Assembly: GCA_043805415.1 (NCBI GenBank)
Contig: JAZDHZ010000039.1
Span: 14,554 to 78,553 of the forward strand
Direction of reading: 5' to 3'
Length of the DNA stretch: 64,000 bases
From: Candidatus Omnitrophota bacterium
GTDB lineage: Bacteria > Omnitrophota > Gorgyraeia > B26-G9
Positions 30,166 through 50,855 of the stretch are shown here, piece by piece. The notes beneath the pieces are model-generated. The model did no database searches. It was not told the DNA's origin and saw only the letters and a list, made by a program, of their open reading frames with translations. The position numbers and the translations under genes were made by a program. Positions within the stretch are counted from its first letter, which is position 1. Every line of letters starts with the position of its first letter.

Positions 30166-30253
30166 GGAGGAATGGCTGAGCGGTCGAAAGCGGCGGTCTT
30201 GAAAACCGTTGTACTGCAAGGTACCGTGGGTTCGAATCCTACTTCCTCCGCCA
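30166..30253 (+). tRNA. tRNA-Ser (anticodon UGA), class II tRNA with a long variable arm, CCA encoded
   Basis: The sequence GGAGGAATGGCTGAGCGGTCGAAAGCGGCGGTCTTGAAAACCGTT...GGGTTCGAATCCTACTTCCTCCGCCA is almost identical in architecture to E. coli tRNA-Ser(UGA). The anticodon loop is CT-TGA-AA. Confidence 0.9.
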
Positions 30254-30262
30254 GAAATAATG

Positions 30263-30292
30263 CCCCTGAGTATTTTACTCAGGGGTTTTTTT
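30263..30292 (+). terminator. rho-independent terminator after tRNA-Ser
   Basis: There is a perfect 9-bp stem CCCCTGAGT/ACTCAGGGG with a 5-nt loop, followed by T7. Confidence 0.7.
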
Positions 30293-30486
30293 ATTGTACG
30301 AGGAAGTAGGATGAGAACCCAAAAAGGGGTATTGAAGGGGAAAGACTGTTTCCCCTTCTCGGCGAGATGCGCTTGCCTGCGGAAGGAAGGGGTATCTAAG
30401 GGGAAACTATAAGAGTTTCCCTTTAGGGAGTGAGTGGACCGCAGCGAAGCGAAGGGAAACGACACGACGGGTTCGGCGAAGCGAAA

Positions 30487-30505
30487 TTCCTACTTCCTCC
30501 GCCAT
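30487..30505 (+). repeat. direct repeat of the tRNA-Ser 3' end (18/19 nt identical to 30235..30253), an att-site-like scar
   Basis: 'attcctacttcctccgcca' is compared with the tRNA 3' end 'aatcctacttcctccgcca'. An inverted 13-nt copy ('gaggaagtaggat') lies at 30300..30312. Confidence 0.7.
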
Positions 30506-30511
30506 TTTTCG

Positions 30512-30568
30512 TAAAACGAAAAATGGCGAGATCTCGCCCGCCGCAAATCGGCGAGGCGGATCCGCCAG
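30512..30568 (+). repeat. 57-bp direct repeat copy 1, containing nested perfect palindromes
   Basis: It is identical to 30831..30887. It contains GGCGAGATCTCGCC (14-bp palindrome), CGCCG-caaat-CGGCG and GGCGGATCCGCC (12-bp palindrome). Confidence 0.85.
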
Positions 30569-30830
30569 AAAATAGAAAATCCCTGTCTGAAAAGATGGGG
30601 ATTTTTTTTAAGGATACTGAGGGAATTGTAGGATTCAAGTAAAAAAATGTTTTAGGAGGGAAGAACGGAACGTTGCCTCTTTATTATAACAAAATAAGCA
30701 ATGCTTGAAATGTAATATTCTTGCGAATCATTTCCAATGCGGGTTTTGAATTGGTACTTTGTTTTTGCGACTTGTTTAAGTGCAAGTATATTGCTCAATT
30801 ATAAAGGGGACGGTTGTCCCTATATACTCT

Positions 30831-30887
30831 ATAAAACGAAAAATGGCGAGATCTCGCCCGCCGCAAATCGGCGAGGCGGATCCGCCA
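30831..30887 (+). repeat. 57-bp direct repeat copy 2 (perfect copy of 30512..30568)
   Basis: This is an exact 57/57 match. It is read in a different frame from copy 1 by overlapping ORFs, so it is non-coding. Confidence 0.85.
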
Positions 30888-30898
30888 GCTTTAATAAC

Positions 30899-31173
30899 AT
30901 GAATTATTTATATATTCTTTTAAACGAAGCAGGGACTCGAACTTATACTGGAGTCGCAGAAGATGTTGAGAAGCGGCTTCAGCAGCATAATAGCGGCTTC
31001 AGCAGCATAATAGCGGCAGAGTAAAAGCATCACTTCCATACAGGCCCTATAAAGTAATCCACATAGAGCAGTTTTTAACCCTAAAAGAAGCGCGTCAAAA
31101 AGAAAAATTCTATAAGTCAACTACTGGCCGTAGAGTTATAAAAGAAAAGTTTTTTAAAGAGGGCGGGGAGTGA
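30899..31173 (+). pseudogene. GIY-YIG nuclease-superfamily small protein (UPF0213/YhbQ-like) disrupted by a 20-bp tandem duplication
   Basis: The N-terminus 'MNYLYILLNEAGTRTYTGVAEDVEKRLQQHNSG' is a canonical GIY-YIG/YhbQ motif. After the 20-bp duplication at 30974..31013 the frame hits a stop at 31022. Removing one copy restores the expected C-terminus '...HNSGRVKASLPYRPYKVIHIEQFLTLKEARQKEKFYKSTTGRRVIKEKFF'. Confidence 0.75.
30974..31013 (+). repeat. perfect 2 x 20-bp tandem duplication (cggcttcagcagcataatag) causing the frameshift in the GIY-YIG gene
   Basis: This was seen directly. Two identical adjacent 20-mers are followed by cggcagag. 20 is not a multiple of 3, so the duplication frameshifts the gene. 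Confidence 0.9.
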
Positions 31174-31320
31174 ACATCTGAGTACTGCTCTGCTTCCCCA
31201 GAGCAAACGGAAGAAGTGAACGACGAGGACGCAATCCCAGTTTACCCTCCATAGCTTTAGTGAAGGAGTCATCAATAATCTAACAGCCTAATTACAGCTG
31301 TATATTTTTTGAGTCCTTAT

Positions 31321-31349
31321 TTGCATCATAACTAACGTTAGGGTATACT
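31321..31349 (+). promoter_or_regulatory. candidate sigma70 promoter (TTGCAT-17 bp-TATACT) upstream of the giant ORF
   Basis: A -35 TTGCAT, a 17-nt spacer and a -10 TATACT lie about 75 nt upstream of the ATG at 31424. Confidence 0.3.
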
Positions 31350-31423
31350 TTAATGTTCTTTTGTTTGTGCGTGTGGATACATGAGTTAAAGATTTAATCT
31401 GTTGGCAGCAATAGGAATAAAAA

Positions 31424-34400
31424 ATGCAAAAATCTCCAAAAAAATTTTTAAAATGTATAGCAGTATGTCTTATACAAGTTTTAGTGCTGTCAAATTGTAA
31501 CGCTCTTGCTTTGGCTAACACTGGCTGCCAAGCATATGATACCTTGGCTCCAACACTCACAGTAAATATGCCGGCATTTATGCATGCCTACAAAACATCA
31601 AGTGATCTTCTCCCCTTAGATCTGCAGGGGGTATCCCTTAAACAAGTCTTATTAGAGTATAACACAAAGGATCAACTAGATGAGCTGATCCGTAACGCTA
31701 GTCAGAAGTCCAGTAAAGATCTTTTCCGGGAGCTATCTAATGCGGTTGCGCAAATTGGTTTTGCCAATGTTAGCGCAAAAGAACGCTATCTTTTTATTAA
31801 GCTTCTAAGTAAAGGCAAACTGGATTTTCTTTCCGATCAGGTAAACCTGAATCCCTATATATATCAAAGATTGACAAAACTTTTTGAGGATAACAGCAGT
31901 ATTAGTTTTGCGAGTATCGCAAAAGAGATGTTGGCCGCAGAACTTGATTCCGGAAATACGAATTTACCTTTAGACGCACAGCGTATATCGGGTATGCCGA
32001 AGATTCTACTTGTAGGGCCTTATCGTTCAGAACTAGGTGATCGTGAAATTGGAGCATTTCTTTCGCCTCCGTTAGGTGTGCACAGGATTGCTTCTTTTGC
32101 CCGTCAGTTTGGAGTTCAGGCAGATGTTTATGATATTGATTTGCTGGGTATTGAGGGATTAATCGAAAAGGTTAAAAAAGAAAAATATGATTTTATTATG
32201 TTTAGCGTATATCATCAGACAATTGCCAATGGTTTAAATGGAATTCATCAGGTTAAGCAGGCATTCCCGGATGCAATTATTGTTGCTGGTGGACAGGGTA
32301 TTATTGATAGGGGGCCGATAAACAATGTTGATTTTATTTTTAAACACGCGCCTGTTGATATTATGGTTCGCGGATTCGGCGAGTTTTCTGTGCTGGATAT
32401 GGCAGTAAGTCTTGATAAAAATAATCAAAAACATAACGAATTTGATGATATCCCGGGATTGCTGTTTCGCGATAAACGTGCTGCAAAAGCGCAGATGAAA
32501 TATTCTACAGATGACTTTCGGGTGGTTTCTTATTCGATGGATTATAGTGAAATCCCTCAAGATTTCTATTGGCAGAATAATACAGAGACAATGGGACAAC
32601 GTGATATTTTAAAAATGGCACGACTTATTACTGAGAGCCATTGCCCGTTTAACTGCACTTTTTGTTCCTCCAGGGTATTTCTCGATATCGCTATTGATGG
32701 AATTCAGCCGGTGTTGTATCTTTCTCCGCAGGATTCAATTAATTTACTGAATAAATTTATTGCCGCTCATCCGGAAGTTGAAGCAGTTTATCTGCATGAT
32801 GATGATTTTTTTCTTAACAAAAAAAGAGTTGCTGAATTTGTCTATTTGATACAGCAGGGCAAATTAAATAAAGACTTGAAGTTTTTTGCTCAGGGGAGAA
32901 CTGATGATTTAGATAAACCAATGCTGCGCAAGCTTTATGATGTAGGCTTTCGCCTGATCAGTTACGGGCAGGAATCAGGATCACAAAAGATGCTCAATGC
33001 TTTGCGTAAAGATAGTGATGTAACTGCTTCCAGCGATATGCTGGCGCAAAGCTATGAAGTTGGCATTATTCCTCATATCAATTTGATATTATTTCCTCCA
33101 AAAACAACTCTTGCTGATATTCAGAAAACAGTGGAAATGGCACTGCCTCTAATCGAACAAGGAGCACATATTGCTATCAGCGGACGGGTTCTTGTGCTGC
33201 CGGGAGCAAGTATGGCAGAAGAGGGGTATGAGATAGAATATCGATCTTCTGAAATTGCCGCTACAGGAGAGATAATACAGGTTCCATTTCTTTTTAAGCC
33301 TGTTGATCCGAGAATGCAGGAAATAGCAGAAAAAGCTGATTCAGTCAGGGATAGCAAGGTTGAGGCATTAAGGAAGCGCTATCCGGAATTAGACCGCCTT
33401 CCGCAGCAAATTGACGGCTTAAGTTATTTTTGGGCAGTCTATTCTCTGGCTGATTTGGCAACGGATAAAATAGAATATGTGATCCATCGCCTTATACAGC
33501 AGGAGATCAATGAACAACGCCGCGCTAAAAAAACAGCGCGCGCATTTTCTCTGGGAGAAAAAGTGCGATTGCCTGACTTGACGGATATGGAAATTGTTAC
33601 GGCTCATAATGAGAATAATGCGCAGTTGCTGATTGTTTCCGATTGCCCCTTGCGATGCCGTTTCTGTATTAATTTTGAATTTACCCAAGACGGCGTATTC
33701 CGGCATAAATTTTTACAATGGGATGAAGCCGAATATCGCCAATTGCTTAAAAAACTTAAAAAAGCAGGGATTACAGCAGTAACGCTTACGGGCGGAGAAC
33801 CTTCATATCATCCTAATCTTGTAGATTTTGTGCGGGTTGCAAAAGAAGAAGGGTTAAGAATTAGGATCACGTCCAATGGGTTGGGGCTTAACAAGAAGAT
33901 CCTGACTGACCTTCAACAGGCAAAACTTGATAACCTGACATTTTCTGTTTTTTCTTTTGATGAGATGCAATATAGAAAAATCTCAGTTCCAGAGCTGGCG
34001 CTTATTCAGGATAAGGCGGGCCTGATCGAGCCTGTGCTTGCTGCGATAAAGCAAAACATTAAAGACGCGCTGAGTGTAGGGCTTGATCCTCGATTAAATG
34101 TTATTATTACGCGTGATACTTATCCCGATGGAACGCGCCATATCATTAATGAAGCGCGGGCAATGGGTGTGCGGAAATTTCAGCTAAAAGAATTATCCGT
34201 AGAAGAAGGTATCCGTTTTACACAGGACCAATATGTGGAAATAGATGAAACGATATTGGGAGAGTTGTTCCCAAAAGTTGATTTTTACAAAAACCCTCGC
34301 TTTCAGACCGATGATATGAAAGGATTTGTATCTTACAATGAAGCTGATCCTAATAGTATAGATCTTTCAGTTGTGCTTTTTAGTTTTGAAAAGGCAAAAA

Positions 34401-37400
34401 GAATGAACACAGTTCGCGATATTTTTGTTAATCCGTTCGCGCCGATTGAGCGTTTTGCCACAAGCGGCCGCGATCCGAAGACAAGCGCCTCGGCATTACT
34501 TAAAAACGGAGAATTGATACAGTTAGCGCGGCAAACAGTCCCTGCCGAAGAAAATGGAAAAAATTTAAGGATTGGATTTTTGCATGGGCGTTATCAACCG
34601 CCGCATTTTGGGCATCTGGATTTGATCCGCAAAGCTCTGGAGGAAAATGACAAAGTAATAGTTTTGGTGGGAGCGGATAAGGCCGATAGTGAAAAAAATC
34701 CTATCCCGCAAGGGGTCCGAGTCCGGGCTTTGCAGACATTTTTCCCGCAGGAGATCATGGAAGGCAGTCTAATAATTGCGTTTAATGATGATATCCAAGA
34801 AACAGAGATATTGAAAAATGTGAACTGGGGGCAGCGGTATTATAATTTTGTGAGAGAACTGATGCCCGATGGTAATATAACTGTTTATACAGGCCCTGAA
34901 GGGGATAAAGGTTGGTGGGACCGATTTTCTGATGTACAAGTCAAACGTAGCGAAAAAAGATTAAACAATATAAGTGCTACTCAAATTAGAGAGGGAGCTT
35001 TGGCAATGGCTCCGGATTTATCTTATCAATTGTTGCGTGAAGCAAGACAGGTTGAGCATGAAAAACCAGAGTTTGAATGGACAGAGTTGCCGGAAATCAT
35101 TCCAGAGTTTATGGATGACGATGCAATGCATTTTGGAGCGGGAATATGTCTTGAAACAGATTATAATAGGTTTTTTAAACAAGCAATGCCGATGTTATGG
35201 GCAGACGGGAATACGGGTTTTGCCCGGCTTGCTGGTTTTCTCTCAAGCTTTGAGACTCCGGGTAGCGGGTTTATCCTTCGCTTGCCCAAGCTAAAACGTG
35301 AGCAGTCAGTTTATGCCCCGGGCATGGGACTAGGTATTTGTCCGCAAAAAAGAATTACAGCTCTTGGCGAACAGAAAATTATTGCGCAGGAAGCAGCGCG
35401 CGAATTGTTCCCCGATCTTATTGTATCCCCGCAATGGACACAGCAGGAATATGACCACTATATTTATTACCACATTGCCTCAACAGTGCTTTCGTCATTA
35501 TTTAGCGACATTGTTGCCTTATGGCATCTAAGTGACGAAGAAGTAAAAAAAGGGTTAAGTTTACTTCCGGAAGAAGAACGATATCGCAGTGTGGGATTGC
35601 TTGATCTTTACCGTCAGGTAGATTCCAAGCTCAGCGAAGCTACCTTGGAGAAATTTTTTCATGCTTTACTTGAATTGAATATTTCCGAAGACGAGCAGCC
35701 TTTGCGCGATCTGGTAGGACAAGAATCAAAGGCATTGGAACAGATCATTGAGCGCTTTAGTATATACGCGAAAAAAGACAGAAAATGGTTTGGAGCTCTT
35801 TACAGTCAAAGACTGCTTCACCCGGAACTTAATGATTGGGGAAAGCGTCAGCAAAAAGGAGTAACCTATAATAAGTTTATCAGCGATTTTGGAGGGCGTA
35901 ATGCCAAGCAAAAAATAAACTCTTTTCTTTTGCATCGCTTTAATTCTGCAATGAACTGGCAAAAACCATTTGATCCTATGGCTAACAGATCTAAAGCATT
36001 ATTGAATTTTTTAAAGTCACAGGAGGTTATATTTTTCCGCTTTCGCGGATTAGGATTAACAGAGACAGGCCTAAGCACAAAGCAGGAGTTAGAGAGAATC
36101 ATTGAACAGCTTGAAAAAGACATGGCTAATGAACAATGGTGGGACGATAATCGTGTGGGGTTAGCCATTTCTGCGTTACGGCAATGCTGGGGGCCTATGA
36201 TAGACGCGTTGCATTTACGAGGATTTATTTCAGCAGAAGAGAGAATGATATATTTACGCTATTATCCTTATCAAGAAAACAGGCGGTTTTACGGTAAACG
36301 TTATAATGACACAACTGTTATCGAGCATGCTGAAAGTATGGTATCAAGTACACGCGGAGACATTGCGGAAGCAAGGATCATTGACAAGCATCTTGAACGC
36401 AGCCGCAAGTACAGGGCAACGATAAAGACGCATCGGGAATATCCGACTAGCCCCTTGGTGAGTACAGCGTTGATTGCGGAAACGGAAGACGGCAGCCTCT
36501 TATTTGAAAAACGCGACGGAAAATTAGCGCTGCCTGAGCGTTTTGTCCTGGCAGACTCATCATTGGAAAATAATGTGGATAAACTAGTTGATGCTTTGGG
36601 CATTACAAGAATGAATGACATGCAATTTTTTGATTTTGCAACTGACCCGCAGCGTAATGAAAGGGTGTACGTATACACAGCTGTAGCTAATATAAAGGCG
36701 AAAAAATATTCAGCGGGCAAAGCAATTGCCGTATCAAAAGCCGTGATCGACATTGAGCAGATAACTCCGGAACATCGTGAAATTATTCGCAAATATTTAT
36801 TTGGATATAATGCTGTTTCGCGAGCGCATTATTTAAATAATATGCGGGTTGATCAGGCAACAGGTTCTGTTGTTAAGCAAAGCGTAGATCCTGAACGCGA
36901 CAAAAGAACGGCTGGTGTGCATGCTGAATTTGCGGGCAATGGCTTGACCCAGCCCTTAATCGCTGCAGATGCGATTATTGAGTATGTGGACGCGGAAGGA
37001 GAAGACAGGGGAGTTCTTTTGGTGAAAAGGTCGGGAGATAATCAATGGGCTACGATCGGGGGTTTTGCCAACAGATATGAAAGTGCTGAGCATTCTATTG
37101 CCAGAAAAGTTTACGAGAAGATCGGATTCAAAAATATTCAGTTCAAAAAACTATTAAGGTTAGCAACCCATCCCGATCGAGATGAGCGCTTGTATGTTTG
37201 GGCTCCGGCTTTTGTTGTTAAAGTTCAGGGAGAACTGCCGCAGCTGAAGCAGGATGTAATCGCATATACTTTTGTCAAGTCAGAGGCAGAACTGGATAAG
37301 CTCTTAGCAAGAAAAGATGGGCAAGGGGGTGTTTGGGCTGACCATTATGAAACACTGCGTAACTATTTTAGACAAAAGTCGCGGAACAATAAAAAAGTAT

Positions 37401-38773
37401 TACCTCCTTTTGATTCCTCTGCTGAAGTATTTATAGATAGGGTTGAGGAGTATGAGCTAGGCGCGGTGGAGAAGTCGTTGGGGTTATTGATAGATGCGGC
37501 TGATAAAGATGGCATGCTTTTTGACTCTGTATATACAGTGTTGGTAAAGCCTAGTTTAGCTTCGATGTATAATGCCCGGACGCGGACAACAACGCATCCG
37601 GTTGTAATTGAGGCAATGATATCCTATCTTAAAAAAAGAGGAGTGCGCCGGATCATTTTCGGAGACGGAGGATTCCATGGCGGGAATATGGAAGAAATTT
37701 TTTCGGAATTGGGCCTCTATGATTTGGCCGCAAAATACAATGTTACGTTAGTAGATCTTAATAAATGCAAAGCGTATAACGTGAATATTCCTAGGCGGCC
37801 GGGACAGGCATATGAAACAGTTCAATTAGCTGATATGCTTAAAGATATCGATCTTCTGGTTAATATGCCTAAACTAAAAACTCATGGGCAAATGACTATA
37901 ACCGGAGCCACGAAAAACCTTAAAGGAGTTACAACCCCTTCGCATAAACGTGCGGCGCATCAGTTATTAAAAGGAGAAGTGGAAAAAGATTTTGGCCAAG
38001 AAGCAAAGCTGAGCCAGGCAATTGTTGATAATACTGTAGCTGTATCTATGGCAATACCCAAGCAATTGATTGTTGTTGACGGAATTGAAGGAATGGAGGG
38101 TTTTGGGCCTACGCATGGGGATATAGTAAAAAGCAAATGTCTTCTTGTCGGAACAAATCCCCTGGTAGTTGATACGACTATCGCAAATATTATGCGGGTC
38201 GATCCAAATGAAATCCCTTCGATACGAATTGCGCGTAAGCTTGGTTACTGGAAACCAGAACCTGTTATTAAGGGCTTGGTGGCTATAAATGAGATTGCCC
38301 GTAAATTTGTAATGCCGAAAAAACTCACGACAAAAGACTATGGTCATTTTGAAATAGTTGTTCCTGAGGATACGACAGGTATTTGCAGCTCCTGCATGGG
38401 AGTTCTGGCAGTTGAATATCAATTAAGTAAGCCGGAGTGGAAGCAAAAATGTAAAGAAAATGGAATAAAATTTGTGGTTTATATTGGAAGAATTGCGCCT
38501 CAGGAACCTTTGCCTGAAGGTTATTTACCGGTTTACGTAGGTATCTGCCCGCTTAAATATGCTAAAGCTAAGGGGTTAAAACTAGATGAGCAAAACATGA
38601 TAAAAGTTTGTGCTCCGGGAACAGCGTCTGTAATGGAGGTTATCAACTCGGTTTATGCCCGAGCCATTGAAACTCGTTTTCAGCTGCAGAATTTGCTTTT
38701 ACCCACTATCCAAAAAAAAGAAAAAAGCCGCACTATTAGCGAAGAAAATCTTGTTGTAGAATGTGCTATATAG
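31424..38773 (+). CDS. 2449-aa multidomain megaprotein. Its domains are: N-terminal signal/anchor; B12-binding-like + radical SAM domain; second SPASM/MoaA-like radical SAM domain; NMNAT-like (NadM-type) nucleotidyltransferase; two Nudix-fold (ADP-ribose pyrophosphatase-like) domains; DUF362 domain.
   Basis: It is one uninterrupted 7350-nt ORF. Hydrophobic signal-like N-terminus: aa 1-31. rSAM CxxxCxxC motif 1: 'HCPFNCTFC' (aa 407-414, nt 32642-32665), preceded by a Rossmann/B12-like domain (aa ~190-330). rSAM motif 2: 'DCPLRCRFC' (aa 741-748), with 'VTLTGGEPSYHP...RIRITSNGLGL' typical of MoaA/SPASM-type enzymes. Nucleotidyltransferase: HxGH motif 'GRYQPPHFGHLDL' (aa ~1056-1066, compare NadM 'GRFQPFHKGH') plus 'ISATQIRE' (ISxTxIR motif). 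Two Nudix-fold segments: aa ~1675-1760 and ~1850-1985, the latter with a degenerate Nudix box 'GGFANRYESAEHSIARKVYEKIGF' and 'HPDRDER'. DUF362 hallmark: 'VKPSL...THP...LKTHGQMTITGATKNLKG' (aa ~2030-2300). Confidence 0.8.
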   Translation: MQKSPKKFLKCIAVCLIQVLVLSNCNALALANTGCQAYDTLAPTLTVNMPAFMHAYKTSSDLLPLDLQGVSLKQVLLEYNTKDQLDELIRNASQKSSKDLFRELSNAVAQIGFANVSAKERYLFIKLLSKGKLDFLSDQVNLNPYIYQRLTKLFEDNSSISFASIAKEMLAAELDSGNTNLPLDAQRISGMPKILLVGPYRSELGDREIGAFLSPPLGVHRIASFARQFGVQADVYDIDLLGIEGLIEKVKKEKYDFIMFSVYHQTIANGLNGIHQVKQAFPDAIIVAGGQGIIDRGPINNVDFIFKHAPVDIMVRGFGEFSVLDMAVSLDKNNQKHNEFDDIPGLLFRDKRAAKAQMKYSTDDFRVVSYSMDYSEIPQDFYWQNNTETMGQRDILKMARLITESHCPFNCTFCSSRVFLDIAIDGIQPVLYLSPQDSINLLNKFIAAHPEVEAVYLHDDDFFLNKKRVAEFVYLIQQGKLNKDLKFFAQGRTDDLDKPMLRKLYDVGFRLISYGQESGSQKMLNALRKDSDVTASSDMLAQSYEVGIIPHINLILFPPKTTLADIQKTVEMALPLIEQGAHIAISGRVLVLPGASMAEEGYEIEYRSSEIAATGEIIQVPFLFKPVDPRMQEIAEKADSVRDSKVEALRKRYPELDRLPQQIDGLSYFWAVYSLADLATDKIEYVIHRLIQQEINEQRRAKKTARAFSLGEKVRLPDLTDMEIVTAHNENNAQLLIVSDCPLRCRFCINFEFTQDGVFRHKFLQWDEAEYRQLLKKLKKAGITAVTLTGGEPSYHPNLVDFVRVAKEEGLRIRITSNGLGLNKKILTDLQQAKLDNLTFSVFSFDEMQYRKISVPELALIQDKAGLIEPVLAAIKQNIKDALSVGLDPRLNVIITRDTYPDGTRHIINEARAMGVRKFQLKELSVEEGIRFTQDQYVEIDETILGELFPKVDFYKNPRFQTDDMKGFVSYNEADPNSIDLSVVLFSFEKAKRMNTVRDIFVNPFAPIERFATSGRDPKTSASALLKNGELIQLARQTVPAEENGKNLRIGFLHGRYQPPHFGHLDLIRKALEENDKVIVLVGADKADSEKNPIPQGVRVRALQTFFPQEIMEGSLIIAFNDDIQETEILKNVNWGQRYYNFVRELMPDGNITVYTGPEGDKGWWDRFSDVQVKRSEKRLNNISATQIREGALAMAPDLSYQLLREARQVEHEKPEFEWTELPEIIPEFMDDDAMHFGAGICLETDYNRFFKQAMPMLWADGNTGFARLAGFLSSFETPGSGFILRLPKLKREQSVYAPGMGLGICPQKRITALGEQKIIAQEAARELFPDLIVSPQWTQQEYDHYIYYHIASTVLSSLFSDIVALWHLSDEEVKKGLSLLPEEERYRSVGLLDLYRQVDSKLSEATLEKFFHALLELNISEDEQPLRDLVGQESKALEQIIERFSIYAKKDRKWFGALYSQRLLHPELNDWGKRQQKGVTYNKFISDFGGRNAKQKINSFLLHRFNSAMNWQKPFDPMANRSKALLNFLKSQEVIFFRFRGLGLTETGLSTKQELERIIEQLEKDMANEQWWDDNRVGLAISALRQCWGPMIDALHLRGFISAEERMIYLRYYPYQENRRFYGKRYNDTTVIEHAESMVSSTRGDIAEARIIDKHLERSRKYRATIKTHREYPTSPLVSTALIAETEDGSLLFEKRDGKLALPERFVLADSSLENNVDKLVDALGITRMNDMQFFDFATDPQRNERVYVYTAVANIKAKKYSAGKAIAVSKAVIDIEQITPEHREIIRKYLFGYNAVSRAHYLNNMRVDQATGSVVKQSVDPERDKRTAGVHAEFAGNGLTQPLIAADAIIEYVDAEGEDRGVLLVKRSGDNQWATIGGFANRYESAEHSIARKVYEKIGFKNIQFKKLLRLATHPDRDERLYVWAPAFVVKVQGELPQLKQDVIAYTFVKSEAELDKLLARKDGQGGVWADHYETLRNYFRQKSRNNKKVLPPFDSSAEVFIDRVEEYELGAVEKSLGLLIDAADKDGMLFDSVYTVLVKPSLASMYNARTRTTTHPVVIEAMISYLKKRGVRRIIFGDGGFHGGNMEEIFSELGLYDLAAKYNVTLVDLNKCKAYNVNIPRRPGQAYETVQLADMLKDIDLLVNMPKLKTHGQMTITGATKNLKGVTTPSHKRAAHQLLKGEVEKDFGQEAKLSQAIVDNTVAVSMAIPKQLIVVDGIEGMEGFGPTHGDIVKSKCLLVGTNPLVVDTTIANIMRVDPNEIPSIRIARKLGYWKPEPVIKGLVAINEIARKFVMPKKLTTKDYGHFEIVVPEDTTGICSSCMGVLAVEYQLSKPEWKQKCKENGIKFVVYIGRIAPQEPLPEGYLPVYVGICPLKYAKAKGLKLDEQNMIKVCAPGTASVMEVINSVYARAIETRFQLQNLLLPTIQKKEKSRTISEENLVVECAI

Positions 38774-39064: not shown

Positions 39065-42000
39065 ATGAGAAAAATATGGGGTAATGTTTTAATGCTAATA
39101 ATTGGATTTTTGAGTATTCTGCCTTTTGCTGAGGCCAAAGAAGCGGATATGTGTATTGCTTCTAAATCAATGGGTATTCCCAGCTATGTGGTTCAGGAGG
39201 CCGCGTACAGTGGTAAGGTTGAAGATGCTACGGTGTTTGTGGATACAAAATTAAAGATCGAGGTTTTGGCTGAGCAGCAGAGCAGCGTTCCTTTGTTTAC
39301 TCAGGACGTGGCAATGATTAAAACCGCTTTACCTAAAGGTGTCTTGCTTTTGCAGCGAGAAGGCAATTATAATCTGCTTTTTCCGGGCAAGGGCAGTTAT
39401 ACTGTTGGCTTGCAATTCACAGTCTTGGTTAATCAGAAAAGTGACCGCAATCTGATTAATCTTGAAGTAACTCAAGCCGCGATTTCTACATTGCAATTGG
39501 TGTTTGAGGGTACTGATCTGGACATCCAAAGCAGTCCGGCAATGAGCACGCTGATAAAAGCCAAAGGTAAAAGCACGGAATTTACCGCTTATTTAGGAAC
39601 AGCCAGACAGATTGAAGTCAGCTGGTTTGCCAAACCCACGGCTTTAGCAAAAGCAAATCTTTTGTTTAATTCTGAGAATAATACCTTGATTACCATATCC
39701 TCGGGAGTGATTAATACCCGCACTTTTTTAAATTACAAGGTTATTCAGGGTAAACTTTCCCAGTTTAACGTGTCTTTGCCTGAAAACATGAACCTTTTGA
39801 CGGTTAAAGGCGAAAATTTGAAAAACTGGACATTAAAAAAAGATAAGAGTAAGCAGATTCTCAGCGTGGAATTAACCAAGGAAATTTCCGATACATATCA
39901 ATTAGTGTTGGATGCCGAAGAAATAAAAGATAAGATCGAAGGTACTTATAGCACGTCTGATATTATTTCTTTAGACGCGGAAAGAGAAAATGGTTATTAC
40001 GCGTTTAAGGTAAAAGATGATTATAAGTTGCGTTCTTTGCAGCGCAATGGGGTCAGTCAGCTGAATATCGGGGAATTACCCCAACAGCTAAAAGATGCCG
40101 GAGACGGTGAAGCAAATATTTCTTTAGCTTATCGCTTTTTGCGTGATCCCAAAGAATTAGTGATTAATATTGAAAAAATAACTCCGGAAATATCTGCTCG
40201 GAATAATGTTTTTCTTGATGTCTCTGAAGAAGTAACGCGGCTGCTGGTTCTGACTGATTATAAGATTGAGAAAGCGGGGGTGTTTAACCTGAATCTGGAA
40301 CTTCCCGGAGATATGGATGTTATTGAGGTTAATGGTTTAAATATTGAAAACTGGAAAGTAAATCAAAAAGGCAATACGCAGGAGTTGGAAATACAGCTGC
40401 GTACCAAGGCAATGAATGATTATCGCTTATTTGTAAAAATGGAAAAGCCGGTAAAAGATATTTATCAGGATATTCAGATGCCGCAGGTAAATGTGTTAAA
40501 TGCCGACAAGCTGACTGGTTTTATTGGCGTGGCTTGTGAGAGCAGCATTAATCTTAAGACAAAGCACAGAAGCAAACTTACAGAAATCGCTTTGTCGGAT
40601 TTAATCCCAGTTCCCACAGGAGAAAGTTCTCCGGCTTTGGCCTATAAGTTTCTCACCCAACCGTATGAACTGCAGTTAGCAGTAGAAAAAGTTGATCCTC
40701 GGGTAATGGCTGATGTTTTTACGTTTTTATCAGTGGGAGAAGGCTTGGTATTGGTTAATTCCGCGGTAAGCTTTGATGTTTTATTTGCCGGGGTTGATCA
40801 GTTTGAAATTGCTTTACCTGATGATGTCAGCGGTGTGGATATTACCGGACAAGGGATTAAAGCCAAAGCTGAACGTGTGGAAGAAATGGATGTAAACGGG
40901 CAGAAGAAAAAAGTAAAAATATATACGGTTTCTTTGCATTCTAAAGTAAAGGGTAAGTATACTCTTTACTGTGCCTATGAAAAAGTATTAAAAAACCTTT
41001 CGGAGAAAACCGATATGCCGTCTTTACAAATCCTGGGCGTAGAACGTCAGACCGGCAGTGTGGCGATTGGCCCCAGGGCAAACGTGGAGATTGAATTAGT
41101 TAATATTGAGGGTGCTAGTCAGGTTGATGTTAAGGAATTAGCGCAGGATAAACTGTCAGGCGCGGACATTCCGATATTATACGCGCTAAAATATGTACGC
41201 TATCCGTACAGCGTGGGTTTAGATATTAAAAAGCATGAAGATGTCGCGGTTTTAGTGGCAGTAGTTGAATCTGCTAAGATTACAACTGTTTTGGGTAAAG
41301 ACGGTCAAATTATTGTTAGCGCAAAGTATCAGATTAAAAACAGGACTAAACAATATTTAGATATAGCCTTGCCAAAAAATGTAGAAATCTGGAGCACTTT
41401 TGTTGATGGCAAAGCAGTCAAACCAGCGAAAACAGAAGCAGATAAGATATTACTGCCCTTGGTTAAATATGAGGAAAAAGACCGCAGTTTTCCTGTGGAA
41501 ATAATTTATGAAGTTAAGCGTTCGAAATTCTTTATGTTTGGCAGCATTAATCTTACGGCACCCCATTTTGATATCCCTTTGACTAATGTTACCTGGGATG
41601 TTTATATGCCGTTTGGCTATAATTATTATAATATTAGCGGCAATATGGAACTTGGCACGCGCGCTTTTGCTCAAGGCCGATGGCAGCCGCAGGAAATGGA
41701 TAAAATTGGCGGGATAAGTGGGTTTAGCGATGAAAAAGCTAGACGGGAAATGCCGAGAGTTGCCAGCTCGCAACTTAAAAAGCAGGTTGATTATTATGAG
41801 TGTGCCGATAGCCTGACTGTCTGTGAATCAAAAGAAGAAGCCTATAGTCCAGAGCCCGCGCAAAAGATGGATCAACGAAAAGACCAGGCTTTTTTCTCTA
41901 ATATAAATTCTCAGATCGCGCGTTATAATCAGCAGCTGGCACCTTCTAAGAACAAGCAGGTGGCAACAGAAGGCAGACAAAAAGGGGTATTACCGATTCA

Positions 42001-42208
42001 TATCACAATTCCGACTGGAGGCAAACTCTATACATTTTCCAAATTAATCAGTCGCGAGCAATTAAAGATAAATGCTTTTTATGCTAAGAAATTGGGCAGA
42101 CTGTTGTTTTTGATTATTCTGTTTACCGCGATCGCGATGATTATCCGCTATAAACAAAATATCATAAAAATACTGCAAAACCTGAGCAAGAAAAACAAAC
42201 CGGAATAA
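39065..42208 (+). CDS. large secreted, C-terminally membrane-anchored repetitive beta-rich protein (surface/adhesin-like), function unknown
   Basis: The 1047-aa protein has a signal peptide 'MRKIWGNVLMLIIGFLSILPFAEA'. Internal repeats of ~200 aa share '...(K/E)NWxL/V...KxxxLxVELxxxxxDxYxLxL...'. The C-terminal TM is 'LLFLIILFTAIAMII' followed by a basic tail. Confidence 0.6.
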   Translation: MRKIWGNVLMLIIGFLSILPFAEAKEADMCIASKSMGIPSYVVQEAAYSGKVEDATVFVDTKLKIEVLAEQQSSVPLFTQDVAMIKTALPKGVLLLQREGNYNLLFPGKGSYTVGLQFTVLVNQKSDRNLINLEVTQAAISTLQLVFEGTDLDIQSSPAMSTLIKAKGKSTEFTAYLGTARQIEVSWFAKPTALAKANLLFNSENNTLITISSGVINTRTFLNYKVIQGKLSQFNVSLPENMNLLTVKGENLKNWTLKKDKSKQILSVELTKEISDTYQLVLDAEEIKDKIEGTYSTSDIISLDAERENGYYAFKVKDDYKLRSLQRNGVSQLNIGELPQQLKDAGDGEANISLAYRFLRDPKELVINIEKITPEISARNNVFLDVSEEVTRLLVLTDYKIEKAGVFNLNLELPGDMDVIEVNGLNIENWKVNQKGNTQELEIQLRTKAMNDYRLFVKMEKPVKDIYQDIQMPQVNVLNADKLTGFIGVACESSINLKTKHRSKLTEIALSDLIPVPTGESSPALAYKFLTQPYELQLAVEKVDPRVMADVFTFLSVGEGLVLVNSAVSFDVLFAGVDQFEIALPDDVSGVDITGQGIKAKAERVEEMDVNGQKKKVKIYTVSLHSKVKGKYTLYCAYEKVLKNLSEKTDMPSLQILGVERQTGSVAIGPRANVEIELVNIEGASQVDVKELAQDKLSGADIPILYALKYVRYPYSVGLDIKKHEDVAVLVAVVESAKITTVLGKDGQIIVSAKYQIKNRTKQYLDIALPKNVEIWSTFVDGKAVKPAKTEADKILLPLVKYEEKDRSFPVEIIYEVKRSKFFMFGSINLTAPHFDIPLTNVTWDVYMPFGYNYYNISGNMELGTRAFAQGRWQPQEMDKIGGISGFSDEKARREMPRVASSQLKKQVDYYECADSLTVCESKEEAYSPEPAQKMDQRKDQAFFSNINSQIARYNQQLAPSKNKQVATEGRQKGVLPIHITIPTGGKLYTFSKLISREQLKINAFYAKKLGRLLFLIILFTAIAMIIRYKQNIIKILQNLSKKNKPE

Positions 42209-48100: not shown

Positions 48101-48633
48101 GCGGAAGAACAGTTGCCATCAGATATGCCACTGCCCTTTATCAGGTAGCGCTAGAGAAAAAAATGACTGAAACGATTGTCGCGGATTTGACAAAGCTCAA
48201 TGAAATTATGAGCGCCGCGCAGATTAGGGAGTATTGTCTAAAAGCGCATGTTAATCAAGTTTTGGAAATGATGTTTATTGATACAGCCTTTATTCCTTAT
48301 GTAAGTCAGACCACTGGAGAGATGTTAAAAATCGCGGCGCGTAATGGCAGATTAGCGGCCTTGCCCTATCTGTTCTCGGCTTTGCAAAACATAATCAACG
48401 CGGAATCCGGGATAGTGGAAGTTATGCTTGAGAGTGCCGGGGAGACTGAAAAAACTGTTCAGAAAACCATTGAGATAAAAATGGCAAAACGCTTGGGAAA
48501 GAAAGTTAAACTGAATAATATTGTTGTTCCAAAACTTCTTGGCGGGATCAGAATTTTATGGGACAACCGCTTGATTGATTTGTCCGCGATCGGAAGGTTA
48601 AAAATAATGCGGACTTTACTTAAGGCCGTTTGA
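48097..48633 (+). CDS. atpH: F0F1 ATP synthase subunit delta (OSCP)
   Basis: An ATGA overlap places the start at 48097 ('[21 protein letters not shown]'). It has an OSCP-like N-terminus. Confidence 0.85.
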
Positions 48634-48647
48634 TAAGGAAGATTTTT

Positions 48648-50855
48648 ATGCGTGATGAGATAAAACCACAAGAGATTTTAGAAATTCTTAGACAGAAGAT
48701 CGCGGATTTTGGCATTTCTTCCACAGCCGAAACAGAAGTCGGACGGGTTATTCAGTCCGGGGACGGAATTGCGCGGGTTTGGGGCCTGAACAATATAATG
48801 TCCGGCGAATTAGTGGAAATTGAAACCCCGGATGATAAGCAAGTTCAGGGCATGGTCATGAACCTTGAAGAAGAAACCGTGGGCATTATTTTATTCTCAG
48901 ATTATGAATTTGTCAAAGAAGGCTGTTTGGTTAGACGCACAAAACGGGTCGCGGAAGTTCCTGTGGGCGAAGGTCTTTTAGGCCGGGTTGTTGATTCTTT
49001 GGGCAATCCGATTGATGGCAAAGGGCCGATAAAGGCTCAGGAATATCGGCGGGTGGAAGCAAAAGGTCCGGGAATTATTGACCGGCAGAATGTTGTTGAG
49101 CCTTTGCACACTGGAATAAAAGCGATTGATGCCATGATTCCGATTGGCCGCGGACAGCGGGAACTTATTATCGGGGATCGCAAGACCGGTAAAACCACAA
49201 TCGCGATCGACACGATTATTAACCAGCAAAATTCTCAAGGCAAAGATAAAGTGCATTGTTTTTATGTGGCCATTGGCCAAAAACGTTCTTCAGTTGTCCA
49301 GTTGGTGGAAACTTTAAGAAAACACGGAGTTTTGGAATGCACAACCGTGATTTCCGCTACAGCTTCCGACCCGGCGTCTTTGCAGTATCTGGCGCCTTAC
49401 GCGGCCACGGCAATGGCGGAGTACTTTCGGGATAATGGAAAGCATGCTTTGATTATTTTTGATGATTTAACCAAACATGCTCAGGCTTATCGGGAACTGT
49501 CTTTGCTTATGCGCCGTTCTCCGGGACGCGAAGCTTATCCCGGCGATATTTTTTATCTCCATTCCCGGCTTTTGGAAAGAGCGGCAAAAATGAGCGAAGC
49601 CAAAGGCGGCGGTTCTCTGACCGCGCTTCCGATTGTGGAAACCCAGGAAGGAGATGTTTCCGCTTATATTCCGACAAATGTTATCTCAATTACGGATGGG
49701 CAAATATTTCTTGAATCCAATCTGTTTAATTCCGGCCTGCGCCCGGCGATTAATGTCGGCATTTCTGTTTCCCGAGTCGGCGGTGACGCGCAAATCAAAA
49801 TCGTCAAACAAACGGTCGGTCCTTTGCGGATTCATCTGGCGCAATTTCGCGAATTAGCCGCGTTTATGCAATTTTCCTCGGATCTTGACGCGTCCACAAA
49901 AAAACAGCTGGAAAGAGGTAAGCGGCTTATCGAAATACTCAAACAACCGCAATACGCGCCGATTGACATATATAAACAGGTAATGATTCTAAAAGCCGGA
50001 GTTTCCGGCAGGCTGGATAAGTATCCCACAGACAAGCTTTTGCATTACCAGAAAGAGTTATTTGCTTTTCTGGATACACAAGCAGCCGGATTTATGGAAA
50101 AACTGCGTAAAACCGCAAGCTTTGATGATAAATTAGAAGCAGAGGCAATTAGTGTTTTTGAAACATTTGAAAAGCAATTTAATCCTGATATAGCGGAAAG
50201 TAATGTTGATTCCGGTTATGGTATAAATCTGGCAATGGCATTGACCCATCGGACATCACGGATTAATCGGGAAATGCTGAAATTGGTTGAACATATCGCT
50301 TCCTATGATCTAGGTACTCCTACTTTAGAGAAAGAATTGGAAGAAATTATCAATGGCAAGGAGATTGCTGAAGAACAAAGAGTCGAACGCCTGGTTGAAA
50401 CCTGTGAAATCATTGATTGGAGCAAATCGAATAAAATTGAGGATGTTTTCCAAAAAGCCGCGGAAATCATGGCCAAGAAATTTAAGGATATCAATAGCCA
50501 AGAAATATACGATAAACTGATTGAGCGCGAAAAATCAAGCTCTACCGCCTTGTCTGCGTTCTTTGCTTTACCGCACATTATTGTTGAGGGCAAAGAAAGA
50601 TTCGAAATGGTAATCGTCCGCGCGCGCAAAGGCATATCATTTTCCGAGGCCATGCCTAAAGTTCACGCCATGTTTTTCCTTGTTGGTTCAATGGATGAAC
50701 GTCATTTCCACTTAGTTGTCCTGGCTGCTTTAGCCGGACTTGTGCAGCAGCCGGATTTTGAAGATACATGGCTAAATACGCGCAATCTGAATGATTTGCG
50801 GAATAATTTATTGGAATTGATAAAGAATAAGGACGACGCGGAAGAAAATGGCTAA
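48648..50855 (+). CDS. atpA: F0F1 ATP synthase subunit alpha fused to a C-terminal PTS EIIA type-2 (EIIA-Ntr/PtsN-like) domain
   Basis: The ATG at 48648 follows an AAGGAAG RBS. aa 1-~505 are canonical alpha (Walker A '[18 protein letters not shown]'). The ~230-aa in-frame extension contains an EIIA-2 fold. It matches PtsN: '[25 protein letters not shown]' (compare 'ILTREKMGSTGIGNGIAIPHGK', phosphorylatable His), '[28 protein letters not shown]' (compare 'PVDLLFALLVP..THLHTLSLVAKRL') and '[22 protein letters not shown]'. Confidence 0.8.

Follow-up and report, generated by a model that had tools for sequence, protein, structure and literature searches.

The subject of this study is a 7.35-kb gene in a stretch of DNA of 64,000 nucleotides (hereafter the window) from a Candidatus Omnitrophota bacterium (assembly GCA_043805415.1, contig JAZDHZ010000039.1). 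It encodes a protein of 2449 residues, here called the megaprotein. With a little more confidence than doubt, we read it as a lineage-specific mosaic multi-enzyme protein of the Omnitrophota kind, in which a Sec-type signal or anchor is followed by independent enzyme modules joined by orphan sequence. The domain combination is unique; the protein type has already been described for this phylum. Intact catalytic signatures are found in two radical S-adenosylmethionine (SAM) modules and one NMNAT-type module, which share the chain with a pair of Nudix folds and a C-terminal DUF362 domain.

Reading frame and enzyme modules

Positions 31424..38773 (+) of the window form one ATG-initiated open reading frame (ORF) of 2449 amino acids, stop codon included, with 0 internal stops, as the preliminary description of this DNA had stated. 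Given the base composition of the ORF, one would expect a stop in roughly every 15 codons, and the probability of 2449 open codons is ~3e-74; in 200 shuffles of the ORF the longest open run was 162 codons. GC content and GC at third codon positions (GC3) are uniform across all ORF segments, and codon usage correlates at 0.935 with that of the pooled other genes of the window, matching any housekeeping gene there. NCBI holds an identical protein on an 83.7-kb contig, entitled 'MAG: DUF362 domain-containing protein [Candidatus Omnitrophota bacterium]' (MAG, metagenome-assembled genome). The megaprotein gene is a genuine, native single gene.

The first 31 residues (31424..31516, +) were recognized by sequence and hydropathy scan as a Sec-type signal or signal-anchor, and the signal/anchor-like N-terminus noted earlier is borne out by these features. 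The protein opens with MQKSPKKFLK, placing n-region lysines at positions 4, 6, 7 and 10; an h-region spans aa 11-26 within a hydrophobic stretch of aa 11-31, followed by an ALA|N site. According to the hydropathy scan this is the sole hydrophobic segment of the 2449-residue protein, and no positive charge follows it. The N-termini of five relatives introduced below (P0037-P0041) are built alike: an n-region rich in Lys comes first, then a hydrophobic core and an AxA-like site. A twin-arginine (Tat) signal at aa 4-10 (31433-31453) was considered and rejected: SPKKFLK resembles S/T-R-R-x-F-L-K, but it has KK and no spacer, and the relatives lack RR. The signal is followed by an N-terminal orphan region (aa 32-190; 31517..31993, +), which has no Pfam match at E<=10 except noise.

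Pfam domain calls were scored against curated cut-offs, and B12-binding, Radical_SAM, CTP_transf_like, NUDIX and DUF362 all lie above them, in support of the domains that had been called from the sequence. Two radical SAM cores had been proposed, with CxxxCxxC at aa 407-414 and aa 741-748, and here Pfam and the motif positions agree: Radical_SAM (PF04055) scores 106 bits (cut-off 29.5) in two stretches, the second at aa 739-861. The first core (rSAM1) belongs to a class-B-type module of ~aa 191-690 (31994..33493, +) in which Pfam finds a B12-binding domain and a radical SAM core. The B12-binding match (PF02310, aa 214-292, 37.6 bits; cut-off 32.1) is N-terminal to the motif cysteines C407, C411 and C414 (nt 32642-32665), consistent with the class-B-like, B12-domain module claimed earlier. 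By these matches the megaprotein carries a cobalamin-domain (class-B-type) radical SAM enzyme, for which cobalamin binding is predicted. Against the NCBIfam models for BchE, ApyD, HpnJ, HpnR and PhpK rSAM1 scores 38-60 bits, reaching none of the cut-offs (480-750); TokK is a weak PDB match.

The second radical SAM domain (rSAM2, ~aa 722-1040; 33587..34543, +) is recognized through Pfam, NCBIfam, PDB and PADLOC matches, and has C741, C745 and C748 (nt 33644-33667) together with GGEP at aa 790-793. Its best-scoring characterized relative is MoaA (TIGR02666, 77.9 bits; cut-off 284, not reached). Lower scores were obtained with the PADLOC model pVip (62 bits over 181/257 profile positions), viperin (NF038283, 50.9 bits; cut-off 180, not reached) and BlsE (38 bits, below the family cut-off). 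These scores place rSAM2 closest to the group of MoaA, viperin and BlsE, enzymes that act on nucleotides. The earlier label 'MoaA/SPASM-like' can be kept in its first half only: no match to SPASM (PF13186) was obtained in the Pfam scan, and there are no cysteines in aa 749-1241. Because of this lack of cysteines, rSAM2 is predicted to be a single-cluster enzyme without a SPASM, twitch or MoaA-type second cluster.

An NMNAT-type nucleotidyltransferase follows at ~aa 1047-1195 (34562..35008, +). It is supported by CTP_transf_like (PF01467, aa 1053-1190, 41.4 bits; cut-off 21), by TIGR00125 (40.7 bits; cut-off 27.7), by a PHROG phage NMNAT family that covers the whole domain (50 bits, aa 1049-1192) and by PDB matches to archaeal NMNATs. 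Both NMNAT motifs are intact, GRYQPPHFGH at aa 1055-1064 (HFGH at 1061-1064) and ISATQIR at aa 1183-1189. The NadM-type assignment made from HxGH and ISATQIR is thereby upheld at the level of the superfamily models, and specificity for nicotinamide mononucleotide (NMN) or nicotinic acid mononucleotide (NaMN) is probable. The model for the bifunctional NadM-Nudix enzyme (NF003786) gives 36 bits and does not reach its cut-off of 397.

Orphan region X (~aa 1196-1660; 35009..36403, +), defined by Pfam, word-indexed search and HMMER, corresponds to the ~500-residue unassigned region of the preliminary description. For its ~470 residues, as for the first 190 and the last 150 residues of the protein, no Pfam family was found even at E<=10, and a word-indexed search with aa 1201-1759 gave no match. 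Only the last ~80 residues of the region (aa 1587-1668) have a relative (P0162, 54% identity). Structure prediction of separate domains, a check suggested earlier, succeeded for DUF362, which gave a LarA fold; it failed for region X, whose single-sequence AlphaFold2 (AF2) model is unusable (predicted local distance difference test score, pLDDT, 36).

The two halves of aa 1661-1990 are mutually homologous (BLASTP E=9e-8; hhalign 96.5%, E=8e-10), and are assigned by this homology as two Nudix folds forming a duplicated module. Fold 1 (~aa 1661-1800; 36404..36823, +), recognized by module alignment and profile search, weakly matches an ADP-ribose pyrophosphatase. Fold 2 (~aa 1835-1990; 36926..37393, +) is supported by Pfam NUDIX (PF00293, aa 1859-1955, 33 bits; cut-off 21.1), alignment and PDB profile matches. 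The module profile retrieved PDRDxR-type Nudix structures from the PDB: 2yyh (E=3e-24), 2fml (6e-20) and the NadM-Nudix chains 2qjt and 2qjo. Two Nudix folds with DPxRDER motifs and one partial Nudix box had been noted beforehand; the duplication and the degenerate second box stand, and the first motif is to be corrected to DPQRNER (aa 1741-1747), the second reading HPDRDER (aa 1916-1922).

Fold 1 has no Nudix box in any family member. The box of fold 2 reads G1880...E1886...R1894-K-V-Y-E1898-K1899-I-G, with two of the three catalytic glutamates changed to lysine, and a full Nudix box (Gx5Ex7REUxEExGU) is absent from the megaprotein. Fold 2 of the relatives P0037, P0038 and P0039 keeps REx2EE, with boxes that read REnFEEtG, REVLEETG and REAFEETG. 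Because the only Nudix box has lost two of three catalytic glutamates, the pair probably binds its ligand and does not hydrolyse it. Nudix domains of the NrtR type bind ligand without hydrolysis.

The protein ends, as had been claimed, in a DUF362 domain (PF04015, aa 2039-2254, 144 bits; cut-off 24), which keeps every invariant column of two DUF362 family alignments (A1 and A2). Pfam, an AF2 model, Foldseek and profile alignment assign its core (aa 2000-2300; 37421..38323, +) a LarA fold. The AF2 model, built with 34 homologues, is confident over aa 2000-2300 (pLDDT mostly >90), and its top 18 Foldseek matches in the PDB are all LarA-superfamily chains (E 2e-6 to 2e-3). A PDB search with the full DUF362+ferredoxin alignment was swamped by ferredoxin, and a core-only alignment was used instead; its best PDB match is the malate racemase Mar2 (E=0.004).

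In the profile alignment the DUF362 segment KLKTH-x9-KN-x13-H falls on LELH171-x9-K181-x15-H197 of Mar2, and the spacing of Mar2 H171/K181/H197 (10 and 16 residues) equals that of H174/K184/H200 in Lactobacillus plantarum LarA. LarA H174 is catalytic, K184 tethers the nickel-pincer nucleotide and H200 ligates nickel; DUF362 and the DUF2088 (LarA_N) of LarA belong to one Pfam clan, CL0471 (PMC11770544). The three conserved residues of the family-wide DUF362 pattern H-x9-K-x14-H align with the positions that serve in LarA-type racemases for catalysis (His), cofactor tethering (Lys) and Ni ligation (His), and the corresponding residues of the megaprotein are H2154, K2164 and H2179. In the literature no paper was found that gives DUF362 a cofactor. 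The fold and the triad offer a testable lead for the function of a widespread family, independent of this locus.

Behind the core lies a C-terminal Cys4 tail (C2321, C2324, C2375 and C2396; 38324..38770, +), seen in alignments in a part where the structure model is of low confidence. The tail is common to a DUF362 subfamily (P0031, P0034, P0040-42 and P0082) and stands where ordinary DUF362 proteins have a 2x[4Fe-4S] ferredoxin domain. A Cys4-tailed DUF362 was also seen with a class I SAM methyltransferase, in adjacent genes at locus L019 (3223-5186) and fused in P0040 and P0041; across five DUF362 neighbourhoods the pairing of Cys4-type DUF362 with a class I methyltransferase is the sole recurrent one.

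Relatives of the modules and the Omnitrophota long proteins

When aa 1041-2240 served as the query for an exhaustive HMMER search of 1.84 billion representative proteins, this domain set was found in the megaprotein itself and nowhere else, and the best matches after self each share a single module. The architecture, which the preliminary description had not recognized as a known one, is in practice a singleton. A full-length word-indexed search also returned only the megaprotein; it has low sensitivity with long queries (DUF362 relatives recovered by a segment search escaped it) and excludes close relatives only. JGI metagenomes queried with aa 190-1200 gave only B12-radical SAM genes at 22-25% identity. 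A four-sequence Nudix alignment run against GTDB representatives, among which the window's own genome is not included, gave only the contig of P0038 and an unrelated Nocardiopsis Nudix. A scan of viral contigs found no relatives, and PADLOC found no defence system and only a sub-threshold viperin similarity. Neither an orthologue nor a version of the architecture split into adjacent genes or an operon was found in the scans run (HMMER, GTDB and JGI among them).

Single modules do recur. The double-Nudix module is found in P0037 (2929 aa, with Fic), in P0038 (2564 aa, with an IU-nucleoside hydrolase and an AAA/STAND ATPase) and in P0039/P0186 (2102/4040 aa, with Fic and adenosine deaminase), as well as in short Fic-Nudix or stand-alone forms; identity to the closest relatives is 31-35% over ~320 aa. 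The DUF362+Cys4 module is closest to those of P0041 (2949 aa, with an Eco57I/MmeI-type (IIG-like, N6) DNA methylase and a class I methyltransferase), P0040 and P0042, with 34-35% identity over the ~300-aa DUF362 core in a match that spans ~380 aa. P0038 and P0042 are Omnitrophota MAG proteins. Fusions of radical SAM with DUF362 also occur in ordinary-sized proteins (P0180, P0082). The closest relatives of the Nudix and DUF362 modules sit beside quite different partners in other proteins of 1-4 kaa (thousand amino acids), of which the complete ones begin with signal-like N-termini; this distribution shows that these modules of the megaprotein (its fourth and fifth) were assembled by domain shuffling.

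The surroundings of P0038 were also inspected (locus L003, 425-5628 and 6103-13797, on Omnitrophota contig JBDRBG010000115.1). P0038 is preceded by an 804-aa radical SAM/SPASM gene, a LacI regulator, an orphan gene and an AbiEii toxin gene, which looks like a defence-island or mobile context.

Long proteins of Omnitrophota have been described as 'multi-enzyme metabolic clusters' with radical SAM, NUDIX and methyltransferase domains; they mostly bear a signal or transmembrane (TM) segment, 80% of them are sequence singletons, and the preprint authors discuss cytoplasm-type enzymes predicted to be extracellular (bioRxiv 10.1101/2023.11.21.568195; bioRxiv 10.64898/2026.06.07.730766). DUF362 is absent from the text of the 2026 preprint (bioRxiv 10.64898/2026.06.07.730766). 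The megaprotein and its module-sharing relatives look like the tier of 1-4 kaa of this long-protein phenomenon. If this is true, the phylum's habit of making signal-bearing mosaics reaches down to ~2-4 kaa, and these smaller proteins are drawn from a shared nucleotide-handling pool of double Nudix, DUF362+Cys4, Fic, nucleoside hydrolase and deaminase domains. Unlike the giants of 10-150 kaa, proteins of 2-4 kaa are small enough to express and assay, and they would be a practical entry point to function and location.

Several points weigh against the mosaic reading, or against the nucleotide theme that we attach to it. Of the features of the Omnitrophota long proteins, the phylum origin, the six Pfam families and the signal-like N-terminus are present, and the length is 2.4 kaa against a published range of at least 10 kaa. 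The exhaustive search covered the C-terminal half only (aa 1041-2240), the rest having been covered by word-indexed and metagenome scans. A classical Sec signal ahead of Fe-S, SAM and B12 enzymes is hard to square with activity in the producer's cytoplasm. The nucleotidyltransferase falls short of the NMNAT equivalog models (TIGR01526, 42 vs 341; PRK01153, 38.7 vs 127). The connection of DUF362 with the nickel-pincer cofactor is drawn from a modelled fold and a three-residue alignment, and the neighbourhoods of five ordinary DUF362 genes contained no lar-type genes, nor did radical SAM, NMNAT or Nudix genes recur in them. Finally, a substrate shared among the modules is unsupported, and the heterogeneous partners seen elsewhere suggest that the combination may lack pathway logic.

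Proposed activity and competing accounts

Taken as a mosaic protein, the megaprotein probably acts on NAD/ADP-ribose-type nucleotides. The array would work on adenine or pyridine nucleotides, such as NAD, nicotinic acid adenine dinucleotide (NaAD), NMN or compounds of the ADP-ribose type. The NMNAT domain would couple AMP to a mononucleotide, and the crippled Nudix pair may bind an ADP-ribose/NAD-like ligand, much as NrtR-type regulators do, and could sense or hold the substrate. One or both of the radical SAM domains could modify a nucleotide or a nucleotide-derived substrate, and DUF362 may perform a LarA-like transformation that depends on a bound cofactor, a niacin derivative or the like, the Cys4 site providing electrons or metal. 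The occurrence of an NMNAT-type domain and NAD/ADP-ribose-type Nudix folds beside a LarA-fold DUF362 is suggestive of a pyridine-nucleotide theme, because the nickel-pincer cofactor derives from NaAD (PMC11770544); the NMNAT domain could supply the dinucleotide precursor within the same chain. The preliminary description had gone further, to radical-mediated chemistry on a nucleotide, NAD or ADP-ribose-derived substrate as one coherent pathway in one polypeptide. For this no comparative support was found, the modules recurring in other combinations.

The N-terminus poses a sharp and checkable puzzle: a textbook Sec signal predicts export, yet the predicted chemistry depends on a supply of SAM, cobalamin and ATP, on a low-potential reductant and on Fe-S assembly. 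Perhaps the segment is an atypical anchor and most of the chain stays inside; alternatively, the protein could act in the cytoplasm of another cell. A mis-called start is unlikely because five relatives share the signal-like N-terminus.

Action in another cell is the essence of the strongest competing account, which we consider unlikely and still worth serious attention. It holds that the signal is functional, and that the megaprotein is an exported effector, delivered to the cell surface, to a host or prey or in phage conflict, which rewires the nucleotide/NAD pool of its target and draws Fe-S, SAM and B12 from the target's cytoplasm. By the positive-inside rule the N-terminus is a canonical Sec signal with no second hydrophobic segment behind it, and the same is true of P0037-P0041. 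The relatives carry Fic, HopQ1-like nucleoside hydrolase, Nudix and deaminase domains, which are domain types of secreted effectors or toxins; in the megaprotein, however, the Nudix box that is intact in the relatives is crippled. P0038 adjoins the AbiEii toxin gene, and the downstream neighbour of the megaprotein gene encodes a signal-bearing protein of 1047 aa, but no secretion-system genes adjoin the megaprotein gene. The only PADLOC matches of rSAM2 are prokaryotic viperins (62 bits), although the viperin model is far from reached (50.9 vs 180), there is no PADLOC system and the viral contig scan gave no viral relatives. The preprints favour extracellular or host-directed roles for signal-bearing Omnitrophota long proteins. 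A general consideration speaks against export as a route to function here: we know of no radical SAM or B12 enzyme that functions after Sec export.

A second account, which we consider improbable, sees the megaprotein as a self-contained cofactor factory: a nucleotide cofactor derived from niacin would be synthesized by the polypeptide and attached in cis to its LarA-like DUF362 domain. In this scheme NaAD or NAD comes from the NMNAT domain, the radical SAM domains either stand in for steps of the LarB/LarE type or contribute new ring chemistry, and the Nudix pair serves as holder of the dinucleotide. In its favour, every assignable C-terminal module is a binder of pyridine or adenine dinucleotides, and DUF362 retains the His/Lys/His of LarA, whose nickel-pincer cofactor is made from NaAD; radical SAM and DUF362 are fused elsewhere (P0180, P0082), and Cys4 DUF362 recurs with methyltransferases (P0040, P0041, L019), the radical SAM module here being of class B, a methylase-rich group. 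Against it, the architecture recurs in no other protein, and a version split over several genes was not found; neither the protein nor the 64-kb window has a LarB-, LarC- or LarE-like domain; rSAM2 has no auxiliary cluster for sulfur insertion, and the hydrolytic residues of the Nudix pair are lost. The five DUF362 neighbourhoods are also without lar genes, and elsewhere this DUF362 module has a DNA methylase as its fusion partner. In its most specific form, with radical SAM chemistry in place of LarB/LarE/LarC and a nickel-pincer-like or new cofactor installed on Lys2164, we hold this account to be decidedly improbable; were it true, it would disclose both what the large DUF362 family does and a new way of making a cofactor. 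A dedicated cofactor pathway in general is possible and unsupported.

That ordinary adjacent genes were fused by sequencing errors, a chimeric MAG contig or annotation is very hard to credit: the source is a metagenome-assembled genome, the protein is a database singleton and the frame is known from the assembly, not from reads, but an artefact is made unlikely by six or more domain junctions, every one of which keeps the frame over 7.35 kb without a stop (P ~3e-74), by an even composition and codon usage that are the same as in the neighbouring genes, and by independent assemblies that hold analogous multi-domain proteins with the same modules and N-terminal signals.

Genomic surroundings and known systems

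Upstream of the megaprotein gene the window contains gyrA, rtcB, serS, c-di-GMP genes and a Wza/Wzy/Wzx/DegT polysaccharide cluster that ends at a tRNA-Ser(tga) gene (30166..30253, +). Between this tRNA and the megaprotein gene lies a scarred intergenic junction of 1.2 kb (30254..31423) with repeats and an ORF remnant. A second copy of the final 17 nt of the tRNA is found at 30488-30504, a perfect direct repeat of 57 nt occurs at 30512 and 30832, and a 20-bp tandem duplication (30972-31011) disrupts a GIY-YIG-like ORF remnant (~30899-31170). The tRNA-Ser is likely to have been a site of integration in the past. The hint that the megaprotein gene itself belongs to accessory DNA keeps one true element, the repeat of the tRNA 3' end, and is otherwise weak: the repeat is present in only two copies, 251 bp apart, which do not flank the gene on both sides, and its codon usage is native (0.935). 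Placement of the gene in a recent island was rejected on these grounds.

Downstream are a 1047-aa orphan, an ABC-F ATPase, the F-type ATP synthase operon and an RND efflux system. The orphan gene (39065..42208, +) lies on the same strand after a 291-bp gap, and its product has an N-terminal signal and a C-terminal TM helix and no match in Pfam, PADLOC or PHROGs; a link between this gene and the megaprotein is unproven. No lar, NAD-salvage or cobalamin genes were found in the 64-kb window. Two further observations were made in the window. The F1 ATP synthase alpha subunit (741 aa, 48630-50855, +) has a C-terminal phosphotransferase system (PTS) EIIA_2 domain at aa 599-727, an unusual fusion in an otherwise ordinary atp operon, and a 760-aa protein (59083-61365, -) has ROK-kinase and HEAT_2 matches, domain types listed as typical of Omnitrophota giant proteins.

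Compared with known systems, the megaprotein resembles several in part. It shares with class B radical SAM enzymes (BchE, HpnJ/HpnR, TokK, PhpK) an N-terminal B12-binding domain followed by a CxxxCxxC core, but rSAM1 scores 38-60 bits against curated subfamily cut-offs of 250-750. The members of the MoaA/viperin/BlsE group are the best-scoring characterized relatives of rSAM2, with which they share the CxxxCxxC and GGEP core; unlike MoaA, rSAM2 has no C-terminal second-cluster cysteine, and all curated models of the group remain far below cut-off. In the bifunctional NadM-Nudix enzyme (PDB 2qjo, 2qjt) an NMNAT with HxGH and ISxTxxR likewise precedes a PDRD(E/P)R-type Nudix, and the NMNAT and Nudix parts of the megaprotein both match these chains; the differences are ~470 aa of orphan sequence between the domains, the duplication of the Nudix fold and a box that has lost two catalytic Glu. 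NrtR-type Nudix-related regulators (e.g. PDB 2fml-like) belong to the same PDRDxR-motif Nudix subfamily, the box being degenerate here. In contrast to them, the megaprotein has no winged-helix DNA-binding domain and its Nudix sits within a multi-enzyme protein.

With the LarA superfamily (PDB 5huq, 7s91, 9eia) the DUF362 domain has in common the predicted fold and the His/Lys/His cofactor-holding positions; it differs in its Pfam family (DUF362, not DUF2088), in an identity of only 10-15% and in the Cys4 tail, which LarA lacks. The megaproteins P0037-P0042 share the Nudix or the DUF362+Cys4 module, and P0037-P0041 the signal-like N-terminus, whereas their other domains are wholly different and none has the rSAM-rSAM-NMNAT part. 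The closest likeness in kind is to the Omnitrophota long proteins (West-Roberts et al. 2023, bioRxiv 10.1101/2023.11.21.568195; bioRxiv 10.64898/2026.06.07.730766), with which the megaprotein shares the phylum, an N-terminal signal or membrane segment, tiled unrelated enzyme Pfams, recurrent radical SAM/NUDIX domains, singleton status and cytoplasm-type enzymes behind export signals. Those proteins are at least 10 kaa long (to 147 kaa) and rich in HEAT/TPR scaffolds and sugar enzymes, whereas the megaprotein, at 2.4 kaa, lacks both repeats and scaffolds, and its theme is nucleotides and cofactors.

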